DNA from: Candidatus Sulfobium sp.
GTDB lineage: Bacteria > Nitrospirota > Thermodesulfovibrionia > Thermodesulfovibrionales > UBA6898
Assembly: GCA_037380845.1 (NCBI GenBank)
Contig: JARRRI010000051.1
Span: forward strand, 68,755-88,183
Direction: 5' to 3'
DNA length: 19,429 nucleotides
Within the stretch, counting starts at the first letter, position 1, and the number at the start of each line of letters is the position of its first letter. The position numbers and the translations under genes were made by a program. This document shows, piece by piece, positions 4,592 through 19,429 of the stretch. A model generated the notes under the pieces. It searched no databases. It was not told the DNA's origin and worked only from the letters and a program-made list of their open reading frames with translations.

Positions 4592-4667
<76 letters not shown>

Positions 4668-4773
4668 ATATCAAAGTCAGTGATCAGCAAAAAGTGAGCA
4701 GTGAATAGTAAAACAAAAAAACGGAGCTTCAGTCAACTCACCGATGCCGATCAGCCTGTCCCGTAGGATCGGT

Positions 4774-4849
4774 TGGCGCGCCTGAGAGGATTCGAACCTC
4801 CGACCCTCGGCTCCGGAGGCCGATGCTCTATCCACTGAGCTACAGGCGC
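4774..4849 (-). tRNA. tRNA-Arg(CCG)
   Basis: GCGCCTG...TCGGC-CTCCGGA-GCCGA...GGTTCGAATCC...GCCA, 76 nt. Confidence 0.97.
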
Positions 4850-4901
4850 ACAGAGACAGCTTAAGGCTAAAAAGCTGCAAACTTTGTTTGCGCAATTTAT
4901 A

Positions 4902-4978
4902 TGGGGTGGGCGAGGGGATTCGAACCCCCAACACCTGGAGCCACAGTCCAGTGCTCTAACCATTGAACTACGCCCACC
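4902..4978 (-). tRNA. tRNA-His(GTG)
   Basis: CTGGA-CTGTGGC-TCCAG anticodon arm, encoded G-1, C73 discriminator and CCA. Confidence 0.97.
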
Positions 4979-5071
4979 ATTAACTGCCGGTTATAGTGAA
5001 TAGTGAATAGTAAAACAAAAAATGATGATTCAGTCAACTTGCTTCGCCGATCTTCCCGAGCCGGATCGGGT

Positions 5072-5148
<77 letters not shown>

Positions 5149-5181
5149 AATGTCGGAGTCCTGTGAATTGCCCGGAAATTC

Positions 5182-5211
5182 ATTATAAGAGGTTATAAGA
5201 AACCCTGTCAA
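5182..5211 (-). promoter_or_regulatory. sigma70 promoter of the tRNA Arg-His-Arg-Lys operon
   Basis: Minus strand reads TTGACA-N18-TATAAT, ~33 nt upstream of tRNA-Arg(TCT). Confidence 0.85.
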
Positions 5212-5348
5212 CTCTCACTTGCGACACATGTCAGGAGAAAGGAGGCGAAAGAAGTCCGGTCACAATCCCGCCGACTTCCGGATCATGAGCGCAGAAACAT
5301 TGACTGGGTTGCACGAATTTTGTTTTACTATCCTTCTGGAAAACAGAT

Positions 5349-5424
5349 GGGCGGTTAGCTCAGCTGGGAGAGCGCCACGTTCGCAACGTGGAAGTCGGGG
5401 GTTCGAATCCCCTACCGTCCACCA
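5349..5424 (+). tRNA. tRNA-Ala(CGC)
   Basis: GGGCGGT/ACCGTCC acceptor stem with G3:U70, CCACG-TTCGCAA-CGTGG anticodon arm, CCA. Confidence 0.97.
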
Positions 5425-7615: not shown

Positions 7616-10420
7616 GTGGATCGGTCGCCAGAAAAGAAGACAGCCGGCATCGGAAAAAAGAAGATGACTGCCACGCGGAAGAAGACTGATATCACTTTGC
7701 TGCTGCGTACGCCGCTTATTCATATTTTGTTTATTGCGGCACTTGGTTTTTTAGTTTACTCCAATACTTTCTATTCTTCTTTTCATTGGGATGATTCACC
7801 TCAGATATCTCATAATACTGTAATAAAAGACATCCGGAACTTTACTTCGAACACGAAGGGATATGACTTCAATCCCCGGCGTTTCGCAGGTTATTTCAGT
7901 TTTGCCCTGAATTATTACCTGGGGGGCGGATCGGTGACCGGCTACCACATAGTGAATTTCGTCATCCACCTGATCAATGCCTTCCTTGTCTACTTTCTTG
8001 TGATGTTGACATTTAAAACCCCGTACTTCAGCAATCAGCAGTCAGCGACCGGCGATAGGCAGGCGGTACCGCGCAATAACCCCCCTCTGTCCCCCCCTAA
8101 GTTAAGGGGGGATGAAGGGGGGTTAAACTTCCCCGATTCGCGATTCACGATTCACGATCAACGGCCGTTTATAGCCCTTTTTTCGGCGCTGCTTTTTGTC
8201 TCGCATCCGCTGCAGACCGAGGCTGTGACCTATATTGTCCAGAGACTCGCATCACTCGCCACGCTGTTTTATCTCCTGTCTCTGGTGCTCTATATAAAAG
8301 GGAGGCTGGAGGTTGGAGGAAGAGGATCGGAAGGCGAATCCGTTAAATCCTCGCACCCCATACCTCATACCAAATACGTATTTTATTCTTTGTCGCTAAT
8401 TTCCGCTGTTCTCGCCATGAAGACCAAGGAGATAGCCTTCACCCTTCCTGTAATTATAGTTTTATATGAATTCGCTTTCTTCAAGTCATCGCCGAAGAAG
8501 AAGCTGCTTCTGCTTCTGCCTGTGGTGCTCACATTGTTGATAATTCCTTTGAGCGTTCTGCACAGCGGCAAGCCCCTCGGAGAGATACTGTCCGATGTGA
8601 CACAACAGACAAGGGTCCAGACAAGCATGTCGCGGTGGGATTACCTGATGACTCAGGCGGGTGTGATAACAACTTATCTGAGACTCATTTTTTTCCCGGT
8701 CAACCAGAATCTGGATTACGACTATCCGCTTTACCATTCATTATTCGCGCCGCGCGTATTCCTCTCGCTCCTGTCCCTTCTGGCGGTCTTCGGACTCGCG
8801 GTGTACCTGTTTTACAAGAGCCGGCAGGCCGGTGAGCCGGCAAGCCGTCAAGAAGAGGAGAAGGAAAGCAGTCTGGAGGATGGAGGTTTGATGCCTGAGC
8901 ACGGAAGTCCTTCCCTCCGACCTCCAACCTCAAACCTTTATCGTCTCATCTCTTTCGGCATCTTCTGGTTCTTCATAGCGCTGTCGGTCGAGTCGAGCAT
9001 CATCCCCATCGTGGACGTGATATTTGAGCATCGCGTCTACCTCCCGTCGGTGGGCCTTTTTATCGCGATAACGACGGGTGTGTTCGTCGTGGCGGGCAGG
9101 TTTAAGAAGGAGAAGGTCCTTGTGGCGGCCCTGGTCCTCGTGCTGGCGCTATTTTCAGGTATCACCTATGCAAGGAATTCAGTATGGAAGAATGAAACCA
9201 GCCTGTGGGAGGACGTGGTGCGCAAGAGTCCCGACAAGGCTCGTCCCCACAGCAACCTCGGATATTTTTACATGGGAGAGGGGCTCCTGGATAAGGCACA
9301 TAAAGAGTTGCTGGCTGCCTTGAGAATCAACCCCGGATATGTGGAAGCGCACACCAGCCTCGGGAATGTCTATTTCTTGCAGGGAAAGAGAGATGACGCA
9401 CTCAGGGAACTGCAGACTGCCTTAAAGCTGAATCCGGGCTATACGGAGGCGCACATAGATCTTGGAAACCTGTATTCTGCTGAAGGCAGTCTGGATAAGG
9501 CCCTCGGGCAATATGAGGCTGTCCTCAAACGCAATCCGGACCATGTGGAGGCTCATATCAGTCTCGGAAATGTCTACCTTATGAAAGGCCGCAAAGACGA
9601 GGCCCTCCGCGAGTATAAGACTGCGTTGAGGCTTAGCCCGGACGATTTTCAGGCACATAATAATCTCGGTAATCTTTATTTCATGCAGGGCCGGCTGGAC
9701 CAGGCCATCGAGGAATATCAGACAGCTCTGAAACTCAATCCCGGCGCCGACCGGACGCGTAAGAACCTTATGACCGCCTATCGGAAACAGGGCCGTCTGG
9801 ATGAAACTGCCGGAAAAGACCGGGGCACCGGCGTTAAGCCGGATACCGGCCCCGCTCAAGACCACATCAATCTTGCAAACATTTATTACAGACAGGGCCG
9901 CCTGGATGAGGCCGTTAAGGAATATGGGGACTTCCTGAAGCTGAACCCCGATTCCGTTGAAGCTCACAACAACCTCGGGAACATCTATTACAAGCAGGGT
10001 CTTCTCGATAAGGCCCTGGCTGAATATCGGACTGCATTAAGACTCCGCCCGGGTTCTGCTGAAGTGCATAACAATCTCGGCAAGATATACGGCAGGCAGG
10101 GCCGCCTGGATGAGGCCCTCAAGGAATTCCAGGCCGCAGTCAGTCTCATTCCTGATTTCGCCGATGCTCATAACATGCTCGGCAATGTTTATGGCCTTCA
10201 GGGAGACCTTGAAAAGGCCCTGAAGGAATATGAGACGGCATTAAAGCTGGACCCTGGTTCCGCCGACTCGCACAACAACCTGGGGACCATCTATTACAGA
10301 CAGGGCCGGCTTGACAAGGCGCTCAGGGAATTTCAGACTGCGTTAAGGCTCGAACCCGACAATCGCGGGGCACGCAGGAATCTGGAAATGCTTTATAAGA
10401 AAAAGGGAACCGGACGATGA
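7616..10420 (+). CDS. TMTC-like membrane glycosyltransferase (GT-C) with ~11 C-terminal TPRs, paralog 1
   Basis: YSNTF..F.WDD, GYHIVN..IH.IN, HPLQTEAVTYIVQR, KTKE, P.NQNLDY, EHRVYLPS and RNSVWKNETSLW motifs, then HNNLG-type TPRs. Start is GTG 7616 or ATG 7664. Confidence 0.9.
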   Translation: MDRSPEKKTAGIGKKKMTATRKKTDITLLLRTPLIHILFIAALGFLVYSNTFYSSFHWDDSPQISHNTVIKDIRNFTSNTKGYDFNPRRFAGYFSFALNYYLGGGSVTGYHIVNFVIHLINAFLVYFLVMLTFKTPYFSNQQSATGDRQAVPRNNPPLSPPKLRGDEGGLNFPDSRFTIHDQRPFIALFSALLFVSHPLQTEAVTYIVQRLASLATLFYLLSLVLYIKGRLEVGGRGSEGESVKSSHPIPHTKYVFYSLSLISAVLAMKTKEIAFTLPVIIVLYEFAFFKSSPKKKLLLLLPVVLTLLIIPLSVLHSGKPLGEILSDVTQQTRVQTSMSRWDYLMTQAGVITTYLRLIFFPVNQNLDYDYPLYHSLFAPRVFLSLLSLLAVFGLAVYLFYKSRQAGEPASRQEEEKESSLEDGGLMPEHGSPSLRPPTSNLYRLISFGIFWFFIALSVESSIIPIVDVIFEHRVYLPSVGLFIAITTGVFVVAGRFKKEKVLVAALVLVLALFSGITYARNSVWKNETSLWEDVVRKSPDKARPHSNLGYFYMGEGLLDKAHKELLAALRINPGYVEAHTSLGNVYFLQGKRDDALRELQTALKLNPGYTEAHIDLGNLYSAEGSLDKALGQYEAVLKRNPDHVEAHISLGNVYLMKGRKDEALREYKTALRLSPDDFQAHNNLGNLYFMQGRLDQAIEEYQTALKLNPGADRTRKNLMTAYRKQGRLDETAGKDRGTGVKPDTGPAQDHINLANIYYRQGRLDEAVKEYGDFLKLNPDSVEAHNNLGNIYYKQGLLDKALAEYRTALRLRPGSAEVHNNLGKIYGRQGRLDEALKEFQAAVSLIPDFADAHNMLGNVYGLQGDLEKALKEYETALKLDPGSADSHNNLGTIYYRQGRLDKALREFQTALRLEPDNRGARRNLEMLYKKKGTGR
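8077..8125. repeat. 49-bp imperfect palindrome (REP-like) in frame within the CDS
   Basis: TAACCCCCCTCTGTCCCCCCCTAAGTTAAGGGGGGATGAAGGGGGGTTA; homologous to 18355..18520. Confidence 0.85.
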
Positions 10421-10517
10421 TAACTGTTCCTGTGCCCTTTATTCCCGCTTTTTGATCCGTATTTCCGCAAGGTACTGAAAAAGACTTACCCCAGATTATT
10501 CATAAAATGTGGTAGAC

Positions 10518-10667
10518 GCGAAAGGACACAGTATTTTCGCTCATTCTCGGTCGTTACGACCTCCGAGGAACTTGCCCTCTTTATTTCGGGATACACAATG
10601 TCTGAATATCGGGCAAGTAAAACCCTGCCTGCCGGCAGGCAGGCACTCAAACGCTATGTCCTTTCGC
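10518..10667. other. Structured intergenic element (multi-stem; ncRNA or MITE-like) containing a perfect 20-bp palindrome
   Basis: Closing stem GCGAAAGGACACAGT/GCTATGTCCTTTCGC; inner stems CTCGG/CCGAG and ACTTGCCC/GGGCAAGT; CCTGCCTGCCGGCAGGCAGG at 10624..10643. Confidence 0.5.
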
Positions 10668-14352: not shown

Positions 14353-15508
14353 TCTGGAATTTCTTCATCCGGTAGCGAAGCGTGTCGTAGCTAATGTTGA
14401 GAAGACGTGCCGCCTTTCTCATATTGCCCCTTGCCTTGTGCAATGTTTCCTGAATGAGCTTCTTCTCGACATCGTAGAGACATAGGCCTGAATCGGGGAC
14501 AGCCGACAACGACGTCTGTTTTTCGGGGACGAATTCGAGCCTCTGATAAATGTGTTCGGGCTGTATGACATCAGATTTTTCGAGGAGACAGACCTTGGCA
14601 AAGAGGCTCTTCAGTTCTCTCACATTTCCCGGCCAGGAATGCTTTGTAAGGACTTCCATGGCCTCAGGCGATATCTGCATATTCTCGCGTCCGAATTCTT
14701 TTTTCGATGTGGCGAAGAAGTGTTCGGCGAGCAGGGGGATGTCTTCTTTCCTCTCCCTGAGCGGAGCCACGCGGAGACTGAACATGTTCAGCCTGTAAAA
14801 AAGGTCCCGCCTGAACTTGCCTTCCTGCTGAAGCCTGTTGAGGTCCCTGTTTGTGGTGGCTATGACCATGACATCGAAGGGGATCTCTTTCGTGCCCCCT
14901 ATTCGCCGGATAGTCCTGTTTTCGAGGACCCTCAATAGTTTTGCCTGGAGGGATACGTCCATGTCTCCGATTTCATCCAGCACAAGGGTCCCGCCGTCGG
15001 CCTCCTCAAAGAGACCTTTCTTGGTGCCCTTGGCATCCGTGAAAGAACCTTTCTCATGACCGAAGAGCTCACTTTCGAGCAGTCCCTGGGGCAGAGCCGC
15101 GCAGTTGATCGCAATGAAAGGGTTTGAGTATGCCGGGCTGGCGTTATGTATTGCCCGCGAGACGAGTTCCTTCCCCGTGCCGCTTTCTCCGGTTACGAGA
15201 AGATTCTGTACCCTCTGTTCGGCGATTTTCTTGATGTCATCGATCAGATGCTTCACGGAAGATGATTTGCCTATGAGTGTATTGCTGACGGTATCGTCGC
15301 GGTATTGTTCGATGGTCCGTTTCAGCCTCACCGATTCAAGGGCGTTCCTGACGATTATCTTCAGCTTCTCTATTTCGAAAGGTTTGGTTATGTAATCGTA
15401 GGCCCCGAGTTTGAGGGCATTTACCGCTGTCTCCGCCGTGTCATCAGCGGTGAGCATGAGTTCGTCGTCTTCTACAATAAATACCTTATCTTTCTTGCGG
15501 ACCGCCAT
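14345..15508 (-). CDS. sigma54-dependent NtrC-family activator with an internally deleted receiver domain
   Basis: GESGTGKE, INCAA, ESELFGHEKGSFTDA, LDEIG, FRRDLFYRL, WPGNVREL and a Fis HTH. The N-terminus IVEDDELM joins directly to LTADD...KPF. Confidence 0.9.
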   Translation of the reverse strand: MAVRKKDKVFIVEDDELMLTADDTAETAVNALKLGAYDYITKPFEIEKLKIIVRNALESVRLKRTIEQYRDDTVSNTLIGKSSSVKHLIDDIKKIAEQRVQNLLVTGESGTGKELVSRAIHNASPAYSNPFIAINCAALPQGLLESELFGHEKGSFTDAKGTKKGLFEEADGGTLVLDEIGDMDVSLQAKLLRVLENRTIRRIGGTKEIPFDVMVIATTNRDLNRLQQEGKFRRDLFYRLNMFSLRVAPLRERKEDIPLLAEHFFATSKKEFGRENMQISPEAMEVLTKHSWPGNVRELKSLFAKVCLLEKSDVIQPEHIYQRLEFVPEKQTSLSAVPDSGLCLYDVEKKLIQETLHKARGNMRKAARLLNISYDTLRYRMKKFQIR

Positions 15509-17341: not shown

Positions 17342-17371
17342 GTCATTCCCGAGGTAGTAGTCGGGAATCCA
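17342..17371. repeat. REP-like palindrome, left copy (inverted relative to the right array)
   Basis: GTCATTCCCGAGGTAGTAGTCGGGAATCCA; its reverse complement matches the right-array units. Confidence 0.9.
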
Positions 17372-17692: not shown

Positions 17693-17874
17693 AATGGATT
17701 CCCGATTACTGACTCGGGAATGACGGCCGGAGGAATGGATTCCCGATTACTGACTCGGGAATGACGGCCGGGGGAATGGATTCCCGACTACTGACTCGGG
17801 AATGACGGCCCGGGGAATGGATTCCGACTACTGCCCCCGGCTGAGAACTTCGAGGGCAAGCTCTCGGGAATGAT
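17693..17874. repeat. Tandem array of 41-bp REP-like units (3 intact + 1 interrupted)
   Basis: AATGGATTCCCGA(T/C)TACTGACTCGGGAATGACGGCC(G/C)G(A/G)GG starting at 17693, 17734, 17775 and 17816; core ATTCCCG-N10-CGGGAAT. Confidence 0.92.
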
Positions 17875-17938: not shown

Positions 17939-19429
17939 ATGAGAAAGACCTTTTTTGCCTTGGCGATTCTGGTGGTCGCAGGCCTTCTGGCTTATTCCAA
18001 TTCGTTCAGCGTTCCCTTCCAGTTCGACGGTCTGAAGCAGGTTACTGATAACCCGATGATACGGAGCCTGGACAATTTTACGCCCGTCCTTGAAGGTCAA
18101 TACCTTCATCCACCTGCGGGTTCGGAATACAACAGCAGGCGTGTTGTCGGTTATCTGACTTTGGCCCTGAATTACCGTTTCGGAGGATTTGATGTGGCGG
18201 GTTATCACATAGTGAACCTCGCCATACACTTGATCAACGGCATTCTCGTATATTTTCTGGTAATGCTGACTTTCAGGACGCCGTACTTCAAAAGCAACGG
18301 GCAAGAGGCAACAAAAGCCTGCAAGCCTGCAAGCTGGCAAGCTGGCAAGCGTAATAACCCCCCTCTTTCCCCCCTTACCTCAAGGGGGGATGAAGAGAAA
18401 GGATCGCCCCCCCTTACCTCAGGGGGGGATGCAGAGAAACGATTTTCCCCCGTCAGTTTAAAAAGGGTTGCAGAGAGCCGATTGTCCCCCCTTAGGTTAA
18501 GGGGGGATGAAGGGGGGTTACGCTTCCCCGACTCACGGTTCACGACTCACGGTTCTCACTCTCTCATCGCCTTTTTTGCCGCTCTTCTGTTCGTCGTCCA
18601 CCCTGTCCAGACCCAGGCGGTGACCTACATTGTCCAGAGGTTTACCTCTCTGGCTGCAATGTTCTATCTGTTGTCGGTGGTATTTTATATAAATGGACGG
18701 CTCGGGGCAATGGGCGATGGGCAAAAAAGCTTGCCAGCTTGCCAGCCTGCCAGCTTGCCAGCCGGACATCAGGATTCCACCGATTCAACATTCACGATTC
18801 AGTTGCCTATTGCCTATCGCCTATTGCCTATCGTCTATTATTTTTTATCCCTACTGTCTGCTGTCCTTGCCATGCTGACAAAGGAAATAGCTTTTACCCT
18901 TCCTCTCACAATAGTCCTCTACGAGTTTATCTTTTTTAAAGCGACCGTAAAGAAGAAGCTCCTTTTCCTGCTGCCTGTTCTCCTTACTCTCGTGGTCATA
19001 CCCATAAGCGTACTGGGAACGCACAGACCCCTGGGCGAGTTACTCTCGGACCTGAGCACCCGGACGCGCGTTCAGACCAATATCCCTCGTTGGGATTACC
19101 TCATGACTCAGATGAGGGTAATAGTCACCTACATCCGGCTTATATTCTTCCCCGTGAACCAGAACCTCGATTACGATTACCCCATATACCATTCACTGTC
19201 GGAACCGCCGGTAATCCTGTCCTCACTTTTCCTGCTTTCGCTCTTCGGGATAGCTGTGTACCTGATATACAAGAGCAGGCAAGCTGATAAGGCGACAAGC
19301 CGACAAGCCTGCAAGCCCGACGTCCAGTCCCCCCCTTACTCCTCACCCCTCACTCCTTACTTTCGCCTGATTTCCTTCGGTATTTTCTGGTTTTTCATAA
19401 CCCTTTCGGTGGAGTCGAGCGTAATACCC
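17939..19429 (+). CDS. TMTC-like membrane glycosyltransferase, paralog 2 (3' end beyond the window; absent from the ORF track)
   Basis: Manual translation is open for 497 codons: MRKTFFALAILVVAGLLAYSNSFSVPFQFDG...GYHIVNLAIHLING...HPVQTQAVTYIVQR...TKEIAFTLP...FPVNQNLDYDYP...RLISFGIFWFFITLSVESSVIP. It is colinear with paralog 1. Confidence 0.9.
   Translation, partial: MRKTFFALAILVVAGLLAYSNSFSVPFQFDGLKQVTDNPMIRSLDNFTPVLEGQYLHPPAGSEYNSRRVVGYLTLALNYRFGGFDVAGYHIVNLAIHLINGILVYFLVMLTFRTPYFKSNGQEATKACKPASWQAGKRNNPPLSPLTSRGDEEKGSPPLTSGGDAEKRFSPVSLKRVAESRLSPLRLRGDEGGLRFPDSRFTTHGSHSLIAFFAALLFVVHPVQTQAVTYIVQRFTSLAAMFYLLSVVFYINGRLGAMGDGQKSLPACQPASLPAGHQDSTDSTFTIQLPIAYRLLPIVYYFLSLLSAVLAMLTKEIAFTLPLTIVLYEFIFFKATVKKKLLFLLPVLLTLVVIPISVLGTHRPLGELLSDLSTRTRVQTNIPRWDYLMTQMRVIVTYIRLIFFPVNQNLDYDYPIYHSLSEPPVILSSLFLLSLFGIAVYLIYKSRQADKATSRQACKPDVQSPPYSSPLTPYFRLISFGIFWFFITLSVESSVIP
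18355..18520. repeat. In-frame array of four 39-bp palindromic units
   Basis: Units start at 18368, 18407, 18446 and 18485 (TCCCCCCTT-N5-AAGGGGGGATG consensus), bracketed by TAACCCCCC...GGGGGGTTA. Confidence 0.88.

Follow-up and report, generated by a model that had tools for sequence, protein, structure and literature searches.

Two membrane proteins encoded about 10 kb apart in a Nitrospirota genome carry long, repetitive peptide segments at the same three loops, and the question raised by this locus is where such segments come from and how an enzyme comes to hold them. The stretch analyzed here, referred to below as the window (19,429 nucleotides; assembly GCA_037380845.1, contig JARRRI010000051.1, positions 68,755 to 88,183), is the final 19.4 kb of an 88-kb contig of Candidatus Sulfobium sp. 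(Thermodesulfovibrionales), whose genome comprises 3.18 Mb in 104 contigs. Paralog 1 (P0001; 7616-10420, + strand) is an open reading frame of 934 aa, or 918 aa in the database form that starts at M17 (7664), and consists of a GT-C-fold membrane domain with 11 predicted helices followed by 9-10 tetratricopeptide (TPR) repeats. Paralog 2 (P0002; 17939-19429, + strand) is represented by its N-terminal 497 aa only, the contig ending with the window just after the third of the sites considered here; a full-length near-twin of 793 aa, P0053, is available from another source. The two paralogs are 61% identical and differ in length essentially at three sites only, as an earlier note made from the sequence alone had described.

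We consider it likely, with a probability of roughly two in three (0.68), that the inserts at these sites are tolerated, translated and disordered extensions of three cytoplasmic loops, built from a small repeat DNA that is found throughout the lineage. Support for this reading comes from the repeats and palindromes of the inserts, the genome-wide class to which those repeats belong, the hot loops seen across the homolog family, the turnover of the cassettes and the gain of one cassette by paralog 1.

Results

Six repeat-built inserts at three homologous sites

The inserts directly follow the motifs TPYF, GRL and YKSR, which end at 8029, 8308 and 8824 in paralog 1 and at 18289, 18703 and 19279 in paralog 2. 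At site 1, 138 nt (46 aa; 8030-8167) in paralog 1 correspond to 273 nt (91 aa; 18290-18562) in paralog 2; at site 2, 69 nt (23 aa; 8309-8377) correspond to 129 nt (43 aa; 18704-18832); and at site 3, 114 nt (38 aa; 8825-8938) correspond to 81 nt (27 aa; 19280-19360), all on the + strand and all exactly as first described. Although the six inserts amount to 804 nt, or 4% of the window, 15 of the 24 rows reported for the window by Tandem Repeats Finder (TRF) fall within them. The individual 7- and 8-nt units named in the earlier note were all found by TRF, in insert arrays of 2.7-5.3 units with 73-95% matches.

The arrays are combined differently in each insert. Site 1 of paralog 1, in the loop between transmembrane helices TM2 and TM3, contains period-7 arrays at 8028-8046 and 8134-8158 and a G/C hairpin at 8077-8125 with 24-nt arms that are 83% complementary. 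Site 2 (loop TM4-TM5) pairs a heptamer array (8301-8319) with a C-rich inverse stretch, and site 3 (loop TM8-TM9) contains an octamer hairpin of period 8 (8819-8852) together with a GGAGG-type array paired with a CCTCCAA heptamer array (8914-8937). As discussed below, all three loops are predicted to be cytoplasmic. In paralog 2, site 1 is made up of an octamer array (18315-18350), a G/C hairpin expanded by a 39-nt unit repeated 3.8 times (18366-18512), which is absent from the earlier note, and a heptamer array at about 18529-18555. The arms of the 8077-8125 hairpin of paralog 1 recur at 18355-18390 and 18485-18520, where they frame this 39-nt array. Site 2 is a nested palindrome, with outer heptamer arms at 18705-18724 and 18803-18839 and, in its interior, an octamer array (18728-18762) and a heptamer stretch (18780-18801) located by TRF and a repeat search. 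Site 3 joins an octamer array (19280-19317) to a C-rich heptamer array (19332-19357). Separately, we observed that the octamer arrays of sites 1 and 2 of paralog 2 (18321-18350 and 18729-18758) are mutual inverted copies, with 30 nt at 90% complementarity, 378 nt apart, and that they bracket the coding sequence of two membrane helices.

Scored against 200 dinucleotide shuffles each, five of the six inserts fold into hairpins better than the shuffled sequences. The z-scores are -2.76, -1.93 (8 of 200 shuffles as good) and -2.41 for sites 1, 2 and 3 of paralog 1, and -3.65 and -3.24 for sites 1 and 2 of paralog 2 (0 of 200 as good in both cases). Site 3 of paralog 2 has no hairpin by this measure (z -0.35 against 200 shuffles). 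All six inserts are in frame and free of stop codons, as had been noted. This is no independent surprise, because the genes are intact and paralog 1 reads on through its 9-10 TPR repeats. The reading frame is what selection leaves, and a process that itself preserves frame, as the earlier note had it, is not a property that these data demonstrate.

Three hot loops across the homolog family

To place the two paralogs in a wider context, we used an alignment of 121 sequences, consisting of P0001, P0002 and 119 of 120 listed homologs, with P0003 dropped as equal to P0001. The 120 are the best of 5487 proteins found at E <= 0.001 with 8000 scored, in a search of called proteins of at least 513 aa. 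Loop lengths in the alignment range from 13 to 93 aa at site 1, from 8 to 68 aa at site 2 and from 0 to 82 aa at site 3. Length variation in the first 620 residues is confined to these sites (standard deviations of 17.2, 11.4 and 14.5 aa, respectively), bar two rarely used loops in which one sequence has an insert at reference position 296/297 and two have one at 499/500. The suggestion that these loops are recurrent hot spots is supported by the family as a whole. The three loops are NEVERTHELESS special within this enzyme family, though the repeat process is wider, as shown below.

The loop peptides are periodic, as expected for read-through of 7- and 8-nt arrays and G/C hairpins, and occur in many combinations; by reading of the loop lists, cassettes of these kinds are present in about a hundred independent homologs. 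A minimal site 1 of 13-14 aa is present in 23 of the 121 homologs. In more distant homologs, among them the proteins of cultured Geomonas, the loops are short and free of repeats at each of the three sites, and the inserts are therefore derived and restricted to some lineages. Heptamer-type peptides are also present in the loops of two Geobacteraceae metagenome-assembled genomes.

Fold of the enzyme and placement of the loops

Pfam models TPR_1, TPR_2 and TPR_11 match 9-10 stretches of paralog 1 between residues 540 and 934. For the membrane domain, Pfam returned no family for P0002 at E <= 0.01 and none that is relevant for 18 N-domains at E <= 1, and a profile search of the PDB sequences with the N-domain gave no match at E <= 1. 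An AlphaFold2 (AF2) model of the whole of paralog 1 has a predicted local distance difference test score (pLDDT) of 84.2. Because a fold search with the whole protein gave TPR proteins only, the N-domain was folded and searched alone (pLDDT 74.9, predicted template modeling score 0.81). The VIA matches of this model include AglB (Z 18.6), Pmt1-Pmt2 (PDB 6p2r; Z 18.5 over 357 aligned residues), Pmt4 (PDB 9e61; Z 18.3) and ArnT (Z 15.9), with the Pmt matches extending over 357-364 aligned residues at Z 18.3-18.5. The best 20 rows are all GT-C membrane transferases or structural relatives such as a GPI transamidase subunit, and the next unrelated row has a Z of 6.8. Foldseek retrieved the same families with the N-domain, but at E 0.02 or weaker. 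An Asp residue after TM1 is invariant, corresponding to D43 of P0003 in 68 sequences and to D30 of the N-domain in 18, and one source labels homologs 'protein O-mannosyl-transferase'. We take the paralogs to be GT-C-fold membrane glycosyltransferases with a TPR array that is probably periplasmic, the activity being a prediction.

In both AF2 models the inserts appear as low-confidence coil, with pLDDT values below 50 at site 1 of paralog 1. Lys and Arg residues are abundant at the N-terminus and in the short loops, and in the 11-helix order the alternate loops hold the invariant residues. Taken together, the positive-inside rule, the order of the helices and analogy with other GT-C enzymes suggest that sites 1, 2 and 3 and the two rarely used sites correspond to all five cytoplasmic loops. 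The loops that would then be periplasmic, which hold the invariant residues, have no inserts. A separate feature of the paralog 1 model lies outside the membrane domain, where about 14 residues with pLDDT below 50 (approximately residues 730-743, or 714-727 of the 918-aa form; 9803-9845) break the TPR array; TRF found no repeat at 9803-9845.

A lineage-wide class of 7- and 8-nt repeats

The repeats of the inserts belong to a class that is present throughout the genome. After merging, TRF arrays of at least 2.8 units with a period of 7, 8 or 14 number 98 in the whole genome, and the two paralogs account for 10 of these. At a TRF score of at least 35, period 7 is represented by 35 arrays and period 8 by 25, compared to 2 and 2 in each of two third-order Markov simulations; at the same score, periods 6, 9 and 12 are represented by 11, 22 and 9 arrays. 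The unit families are those of the inserts, and the intergenic arrays share their build, being either one-armed or hairpins of up to 290 nt in which an array, a loop and the inverse array follow one another.

Most of the 98 arrays lie in short open frames and many in long ones. Pfam domains were recognized in 17 of the 20 long open frames that were inspected around arrays, and 13 arrays fall in nine other Pfam-confirmed genes (counted as open frames). The proteins with in-frame arrays are UvrA, UvrC, CarA, CarB, DapF, DNA polymerase III delta', HemD/CysG, a molybdopterin oxidoreductase and a BcrAD-type ATPase. In soluble hosts the arrays are often at or between domain edges, for example between the two domains of CarA or the two halves of DapF. 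An octamer pattern, allowing up to 2 mismatches, has 17 matches in this genome. Of 21 related genomes, 8 contain it, and all 8 belong to one family (7 of 12 others); the 9 genomes from other families of the order do not, and read backwards the pattern has no match at all.

The repeat process is therefore lineage-wide, probably mostly intergenic and not specific to this enzyme family. The earlier note had tied the process to these enzymes and had seen in it the best candidate for an undescribed system; the same repeat DNA occurs throughout the genome and in frame in at least nine unrelated Pfam-confirmed genes, and the loops of the paralogs, though a conspicuous local example of what is a habit of the whole lineage, do not constitute a separate system. 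The note had also named what would speak against its proposal, namely similar inserts scattered through all genes with no preference for a site. Half of this is what we find, in that repeats are scattered in other genes, but the site preference within the family is real.

A second and distinct kind of repeat is present in the same genome. A REP (repetitive extragenic palindromic)-like 29-nt hairpin occurs in the window at 17342-17371, at 17693-17833 and around 10486-10645, and upstream of paralog 2 it forms a 41-nt tandem of 3.5 units with an inverted copy 320 nt before the tandem. Allowing up to 6 substitutions, it has at least 71 copies in the genome. In the marsh-metagenome run X1, its summed contig depth is 4 to 18 times that of neighboring bins (161.8 and 629 versus about 35-39). 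Of the 14 runs found, none was listed as holding RNA; nine marsh-metagenome runs contain at least half of the sampled words of paralog 1, in the form of Logan contigs, which drop rare variants.

Turnover of cassettes and transfer between the paralogs

Cassettes differ between proteins whose cores are 94-99% identical. P0034 and P0059, with cores that are 98.9% identical, have 49 and 42 aa at site 1, a step of 7 aa that equals three heptamers, and their site 2 cassettes are wholly different. P0078 and P0082 (94% core identity) have 21 versus 28 aa at site 2 and 55 versus 25 aa at site 3. The near-twins P0002 and P0053 (96% core identity) have 30 versus 70 aa at site 3; P0053 reproduces sites 1 and 2 of paralog 2 nearly letter for letter, and its site 3 holds the hairpin array that P0002 has at site 1. 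A junction of 18521 with 19376, which a P0053-type allele predicts, is present in contigs of two runs.

A more specific history can be proposed for site 1 of paralog 1. The site 1 inserts are not independent of each other, since both paralogs have homologous sequence there (60 nt at 80%; 78 of 95 nt, or 82%). The 82% identity of the cassette exceeds that of the core, which is 65% (624 of 954 nt). Paralog 1 belongs to a clade of 10 sequences (support 1.0), the other nine of which, including three same-genus orthologs, have a site 1 of 13-14 aa; aligned at the DNA level with these three orthologs, which lack the insert, the stretch gained by paralog 1 is approximately 8057-8167. From the absence of the cassette in nine of ten clade members and from its higher identity relative to the core, the sequence comparison shows that paralog 1 acquired its site 1 cassette at the homologous site from a paralog-2-like copy, after the split from the same-genus orthologs. 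Gene conversion from 10 kb away would most simply account for this gain.

Two further kinds of contig join were seen at these genes. In all four runs there are contigs that cross from paralog 2 (19120) into paralog-1-like sequence (8666) at homologous positions, and in contigs of two runs the hairpin region of paralog 2 site 1 (18465) is joined, in inverted orientation, to paralog 1 just after site 3 (8951). These joins represent either mosaic alleles or effects of the assembly graph.

We considered whether the inserts could themselves be artefacts of assembly or binning, given a 104-contig assembly whose contig breaks right after site 3 and given that contigs of other samples join the paralogs differently. 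The near letter-for-letter identity of P0053, which comes from another source, at sites 1 and 2, the gap-free coverage of the inserts by contigs of three runs and the presence of the same kinds of cassette in about a hundred independent homologs make this explanation hardly credible.

A different possibility is that a mobile small element, resembling a miniature inverted-repeat transposable element (MITE), a Rickettsia palindromic element (RPE) or a REPIN and moved by an enzyme such as a Y1 transposase, targets loop-coding stretches, so that the pattern reflects site-specific insertion instead of tolerance and recombination. Such an element would be in keeping with the palindromic and nested structure of the inserts, with the occurrence of the same cassette types in different loops of different paralogs (the hairpin array, for instance, occupies site 1 in P0002 and site 3 in P0053), and with the gain of a cassette by paralog 1 at a homologous site. 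The genome also encodes two Y1_Tnp proteins (PF01797) above the Pfam cut-off, on contigs C22 and C35, in addition to the separate REP-like hairpin. However, there is no family of near-identical cassette copies in this genome or among the proteins of 273-870 aa searched, the arrays have no defined ends, and a possible 4-nt duplication at the paralog 1 junction is within chance. Neither Y1_Tnp gene has any of the 71 REP-like copies within 3 kb, and gene conversion from the paralog 10 kb away explains the gain in paralog 1 equally well. We therefore regard a targeting mobile element as unlikely.

The inserts might instead serve a selected function, either as fast-evolving cytoplasmic loops that alter regulation or partner binding, or through mRNA hairpins that assist folding by pausing the ribosome after helix pairs or between domains. 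Each of the five loops with inserts comes after a membrane helix on what is probably the cytoplasmic side, arrays in soluble hosts such as CarA and DapF are often between domains or at their edges, and the same heptamer-derived peptide ends site 1 in many diverged homologs. Linkers and loops also simply tolerate insertions, however, and cassette content is replaced wholesale between near-identical proteins, while the 23 of 121 homologs with a minimal site 1 and the Geomonas homologs are intact with minimal loops. On balance, a selected function seems distinctly unlikely. A bolder proposal, which we judge improbable, is that hairpin-forming repeat DNA is actively copied between loop sites and into other linkers, rapidly rebuilding the cytoplasmic loops, and that the mRNA hairpins are programmed pause sites after helix pairs or between domains.

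Length changes in natural populations

The unit sizes of 7 and 8 nt are not multiples of 3, and gain or loss of a single unit would shift the frame and turn the enzyme off; the earlier note had mentioned phase-variable switches as a possibility. Contigs of the metagenome runs X1, X2 and X5 span sites 1-2 of paralog 2 gap-free, and an X1 contig spans sites 2-3 of paralog 1 with no differences. No change in unit number is listed for the contigs of four runs, although contigs cannot show rare variants. A minority X5 contig is one C short in the C7 tract at 8091 (depth 9.4 of 34.9), and a third paralog elsewhere in the genome is frameshifted just after site 3, both of which are compatible with switching. 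The insert arrays, in contrast, are poor slippage substrates because they have only 2.7-5.3 units at 73-95% matches. In addition, all 120 listed homologs are open, in a list biased to called proteins of at least 513 aa, and the same arrays are found in carA, carB, dapF, uvrA and the DNA polymerase III delta' gene, which are not expected to be switched off. Phase variation is thus very unlikely, and this part of the earlier proposal is not sustained.

The third close paralog (contig C63, 8313-10632) is 99% identical to the intact P0030 over residues 1-427. Directly after its site 3 cassette about 45 residues are missing, and the sequence continues in a different frame; it is either a pseudogene or the product of an assembly fault.

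Discussion

A proposed model for the repeat-built loops

The observations above are best accommodated, in our view, by loops that tolerate and translate pieces of a repeat DNA common in the lineage, and the way in which this state could arise may be considered in three steps. First, arrays of 7- and 8-nt units and hairpins would arise or land at many places in the genome. Many of the tandem arrays have an inverted partner array, which would allow the DNA or RNA to fold back, and a G/C-rich hairpin has itself been tandemly multiplied. Second, selection would purge those copies that break the frame, add a stop codon or disturb the structure. In this GT-C enzyme, with its invariant residues in the periplasmic loops, the cytoplasmic loops alone would remain as sites. 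Third, resident cassettes would change by slippage in steps that keep the frame (3 x 7 = 21 nt or 3 x 8 = 24 nt), and additionally by internal duplication, as for the 39-nt unit, by nesting and by recombination on the conserved helix-coding flanks, through which paralogs would exchange cassettes. We infer the molecular steps, the translation of the inserts and the cytoplasmic side of the loops from the patterns described.

Several points weigh against this interpretation. Translation of the inserts and their retention in mRNA are predictions from the DNA, and the side of the membrane is assigned from the positive-inside rule, helix order and GT-C analogy. Many homologs with no more than about 50% identity have the same heptamer-derived peptide at the 3' end of site 1, which could reflect constraint on the peptide or the RNA as opposed to neutral tolerance. 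Likewise, the identity of the site 1 cassette above that of the core could partly reflect hairpin constraint instead of recent transfer. The genome has 58 C5-G5-type hairpins, of which only those in the two paralogs contain the hairpin motif, and a search with the 95-aa site 1 cassette found only P0053 and P0002 (proteins of 273-870 aa). The notion of a shared stock of repeats thus holds for the 7- and 8-nt units and not for the composite hairpin, because the composite cassette has no other copies.

This family shows how far small repeat DNA can invade coding sequence when it meets tolerant protein loops. In one enzyme family every loop that is predicted to be cytoplasmic, and none predicted to be periplasmic, has been colonized, and turnover is faster in the cassettes than elsewhere in the protein. 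In annotation, segments of this kind make proteins look longer, interrupt assemblies and blur orthology. They also constitute a natural experiment on the loop lengths that a GT-C enzyme tolerates and on any effect of heptamer mRNA hairpins on translation.

Genomic neighborhood of the paralogs

The two genes share the window with a family-2 glycosyltransferase, a further TPR protein, five tRNA genes, a multihaem cytochrome, a SurA-like chaperone, an NHL-repeat protein and a sensor kinase with a sigma-54 activator. The five tRNA genes (Lys, Arg, His, Arg, Ala) form a cluster at 4592-5424 in which a heptamer array of 2.7 units (4993-5011) separates two of the genes, and near-duplicate spacers occur at 4693-4738 and 4995-5039. 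Contigs of X1, X2 and X5 contain 195 additional letters between 15457 and 15458, within the part of the sigma-54 activator gene that encodes the end of the receiver domain, for which the Response_reg match is incomplete, and about 100 additional letters at 1017. No repeats are visible in the window at either position, and the window assembly may have lost sequence at 15457/15458 and at about 1017.

Comparison with known systems

A full-text literature search for such repeats in Nitrospirae or Thermodesulfovibrio found no paper. With regard to the host protein, eukaryotic TMTC enzymes combine a membrane domain with TPR repeats. The paralogs resemble PMT and TMTC enzymes in the fold of the membrane domain, the invariant Asp in the first outside loop and the C-terminal TPR array, and differ in that their membrane domain matches no Pfam family or PDB sequence. 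The label 'TMTC-like' used in the earlier note is thus appropriate for fold and architecture and finds no counterpart in a sequence match.

Among tandem repeats, the heptanucleotide tract of Haemophilus influenzae hmw1A is a phase-variable contingency locus, and such tracts are long, near-perfect and variable within populations. The inserts share with it the 7-nt unit and slippage as the presumed source of length change, but their tracts are short and degenerate and show no variation in contigs, which drop rare variants. REP and REPIN elements are short dispersed hairpin repeats mobilized by RAYT Y1 transposases. The likeness lies in the short, dispersed, hairpin-forming repeats, and the genome holds both a REP-like 29-nt hairpin and two Y1_Tnp genes; the loop cassettes, in contrast, are not copies of the REP-like element, and no link between them and the Y1_Tnp genes was found.

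RPEs are described as families of about 150 bp with conserved sequence and many copies that insert in frame (PMC10969869). Like RPEs as portrayed there, the repeats are palindromic DNA lying in frame in unrelated genes, nine of them Pfam-confirmed, and would be read as extra peptide with the host fold kept. They differ in being degenerate arrays of 7-8 nt units without defined ends, in contrast to the near-identical, multi-copy families with defined ends that mark RPEs and MITEs, and the one complex cassette has no other copies.

The closest described class is that of the cyanobacterial and Xanthomonas heptanucleotide repeats. A published account reports three tandem heptanucleotides of Calothrix PCC 7601 and GGGNATC-type repeats in Xanthomonas and Nostoc, summarizes Mrazek's 2007 survey and describes these repeats as under-represented in genes (PMC4692102). 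The two classes have in common tandem 7-nt units that are dispersed genome-wide, far above chance and variable in unit number and sequence; the repeats described here are probably also mostly intergenic. In this genome about a quarter of the arrays lie in frame in genes, 8-nt units are as common as 7-nt units, many arrays are paired with an inverse array, the units have no G-quadruplex logic and the host lineage is Nitrospirota. The cyanobacterial heptamers go by the name of short tandemly repeated repetitive (STRR) sequences, and Elhai in 2008 reportedly described small dispersed repeats nested in heptamer arrays. Set beside these systems, what stands out in the Candidatus Sulfobium enzymes is the pattern in which all of the probable cytoplasmic loops are used, together with the transfer of a cassette from one paralog to the other.

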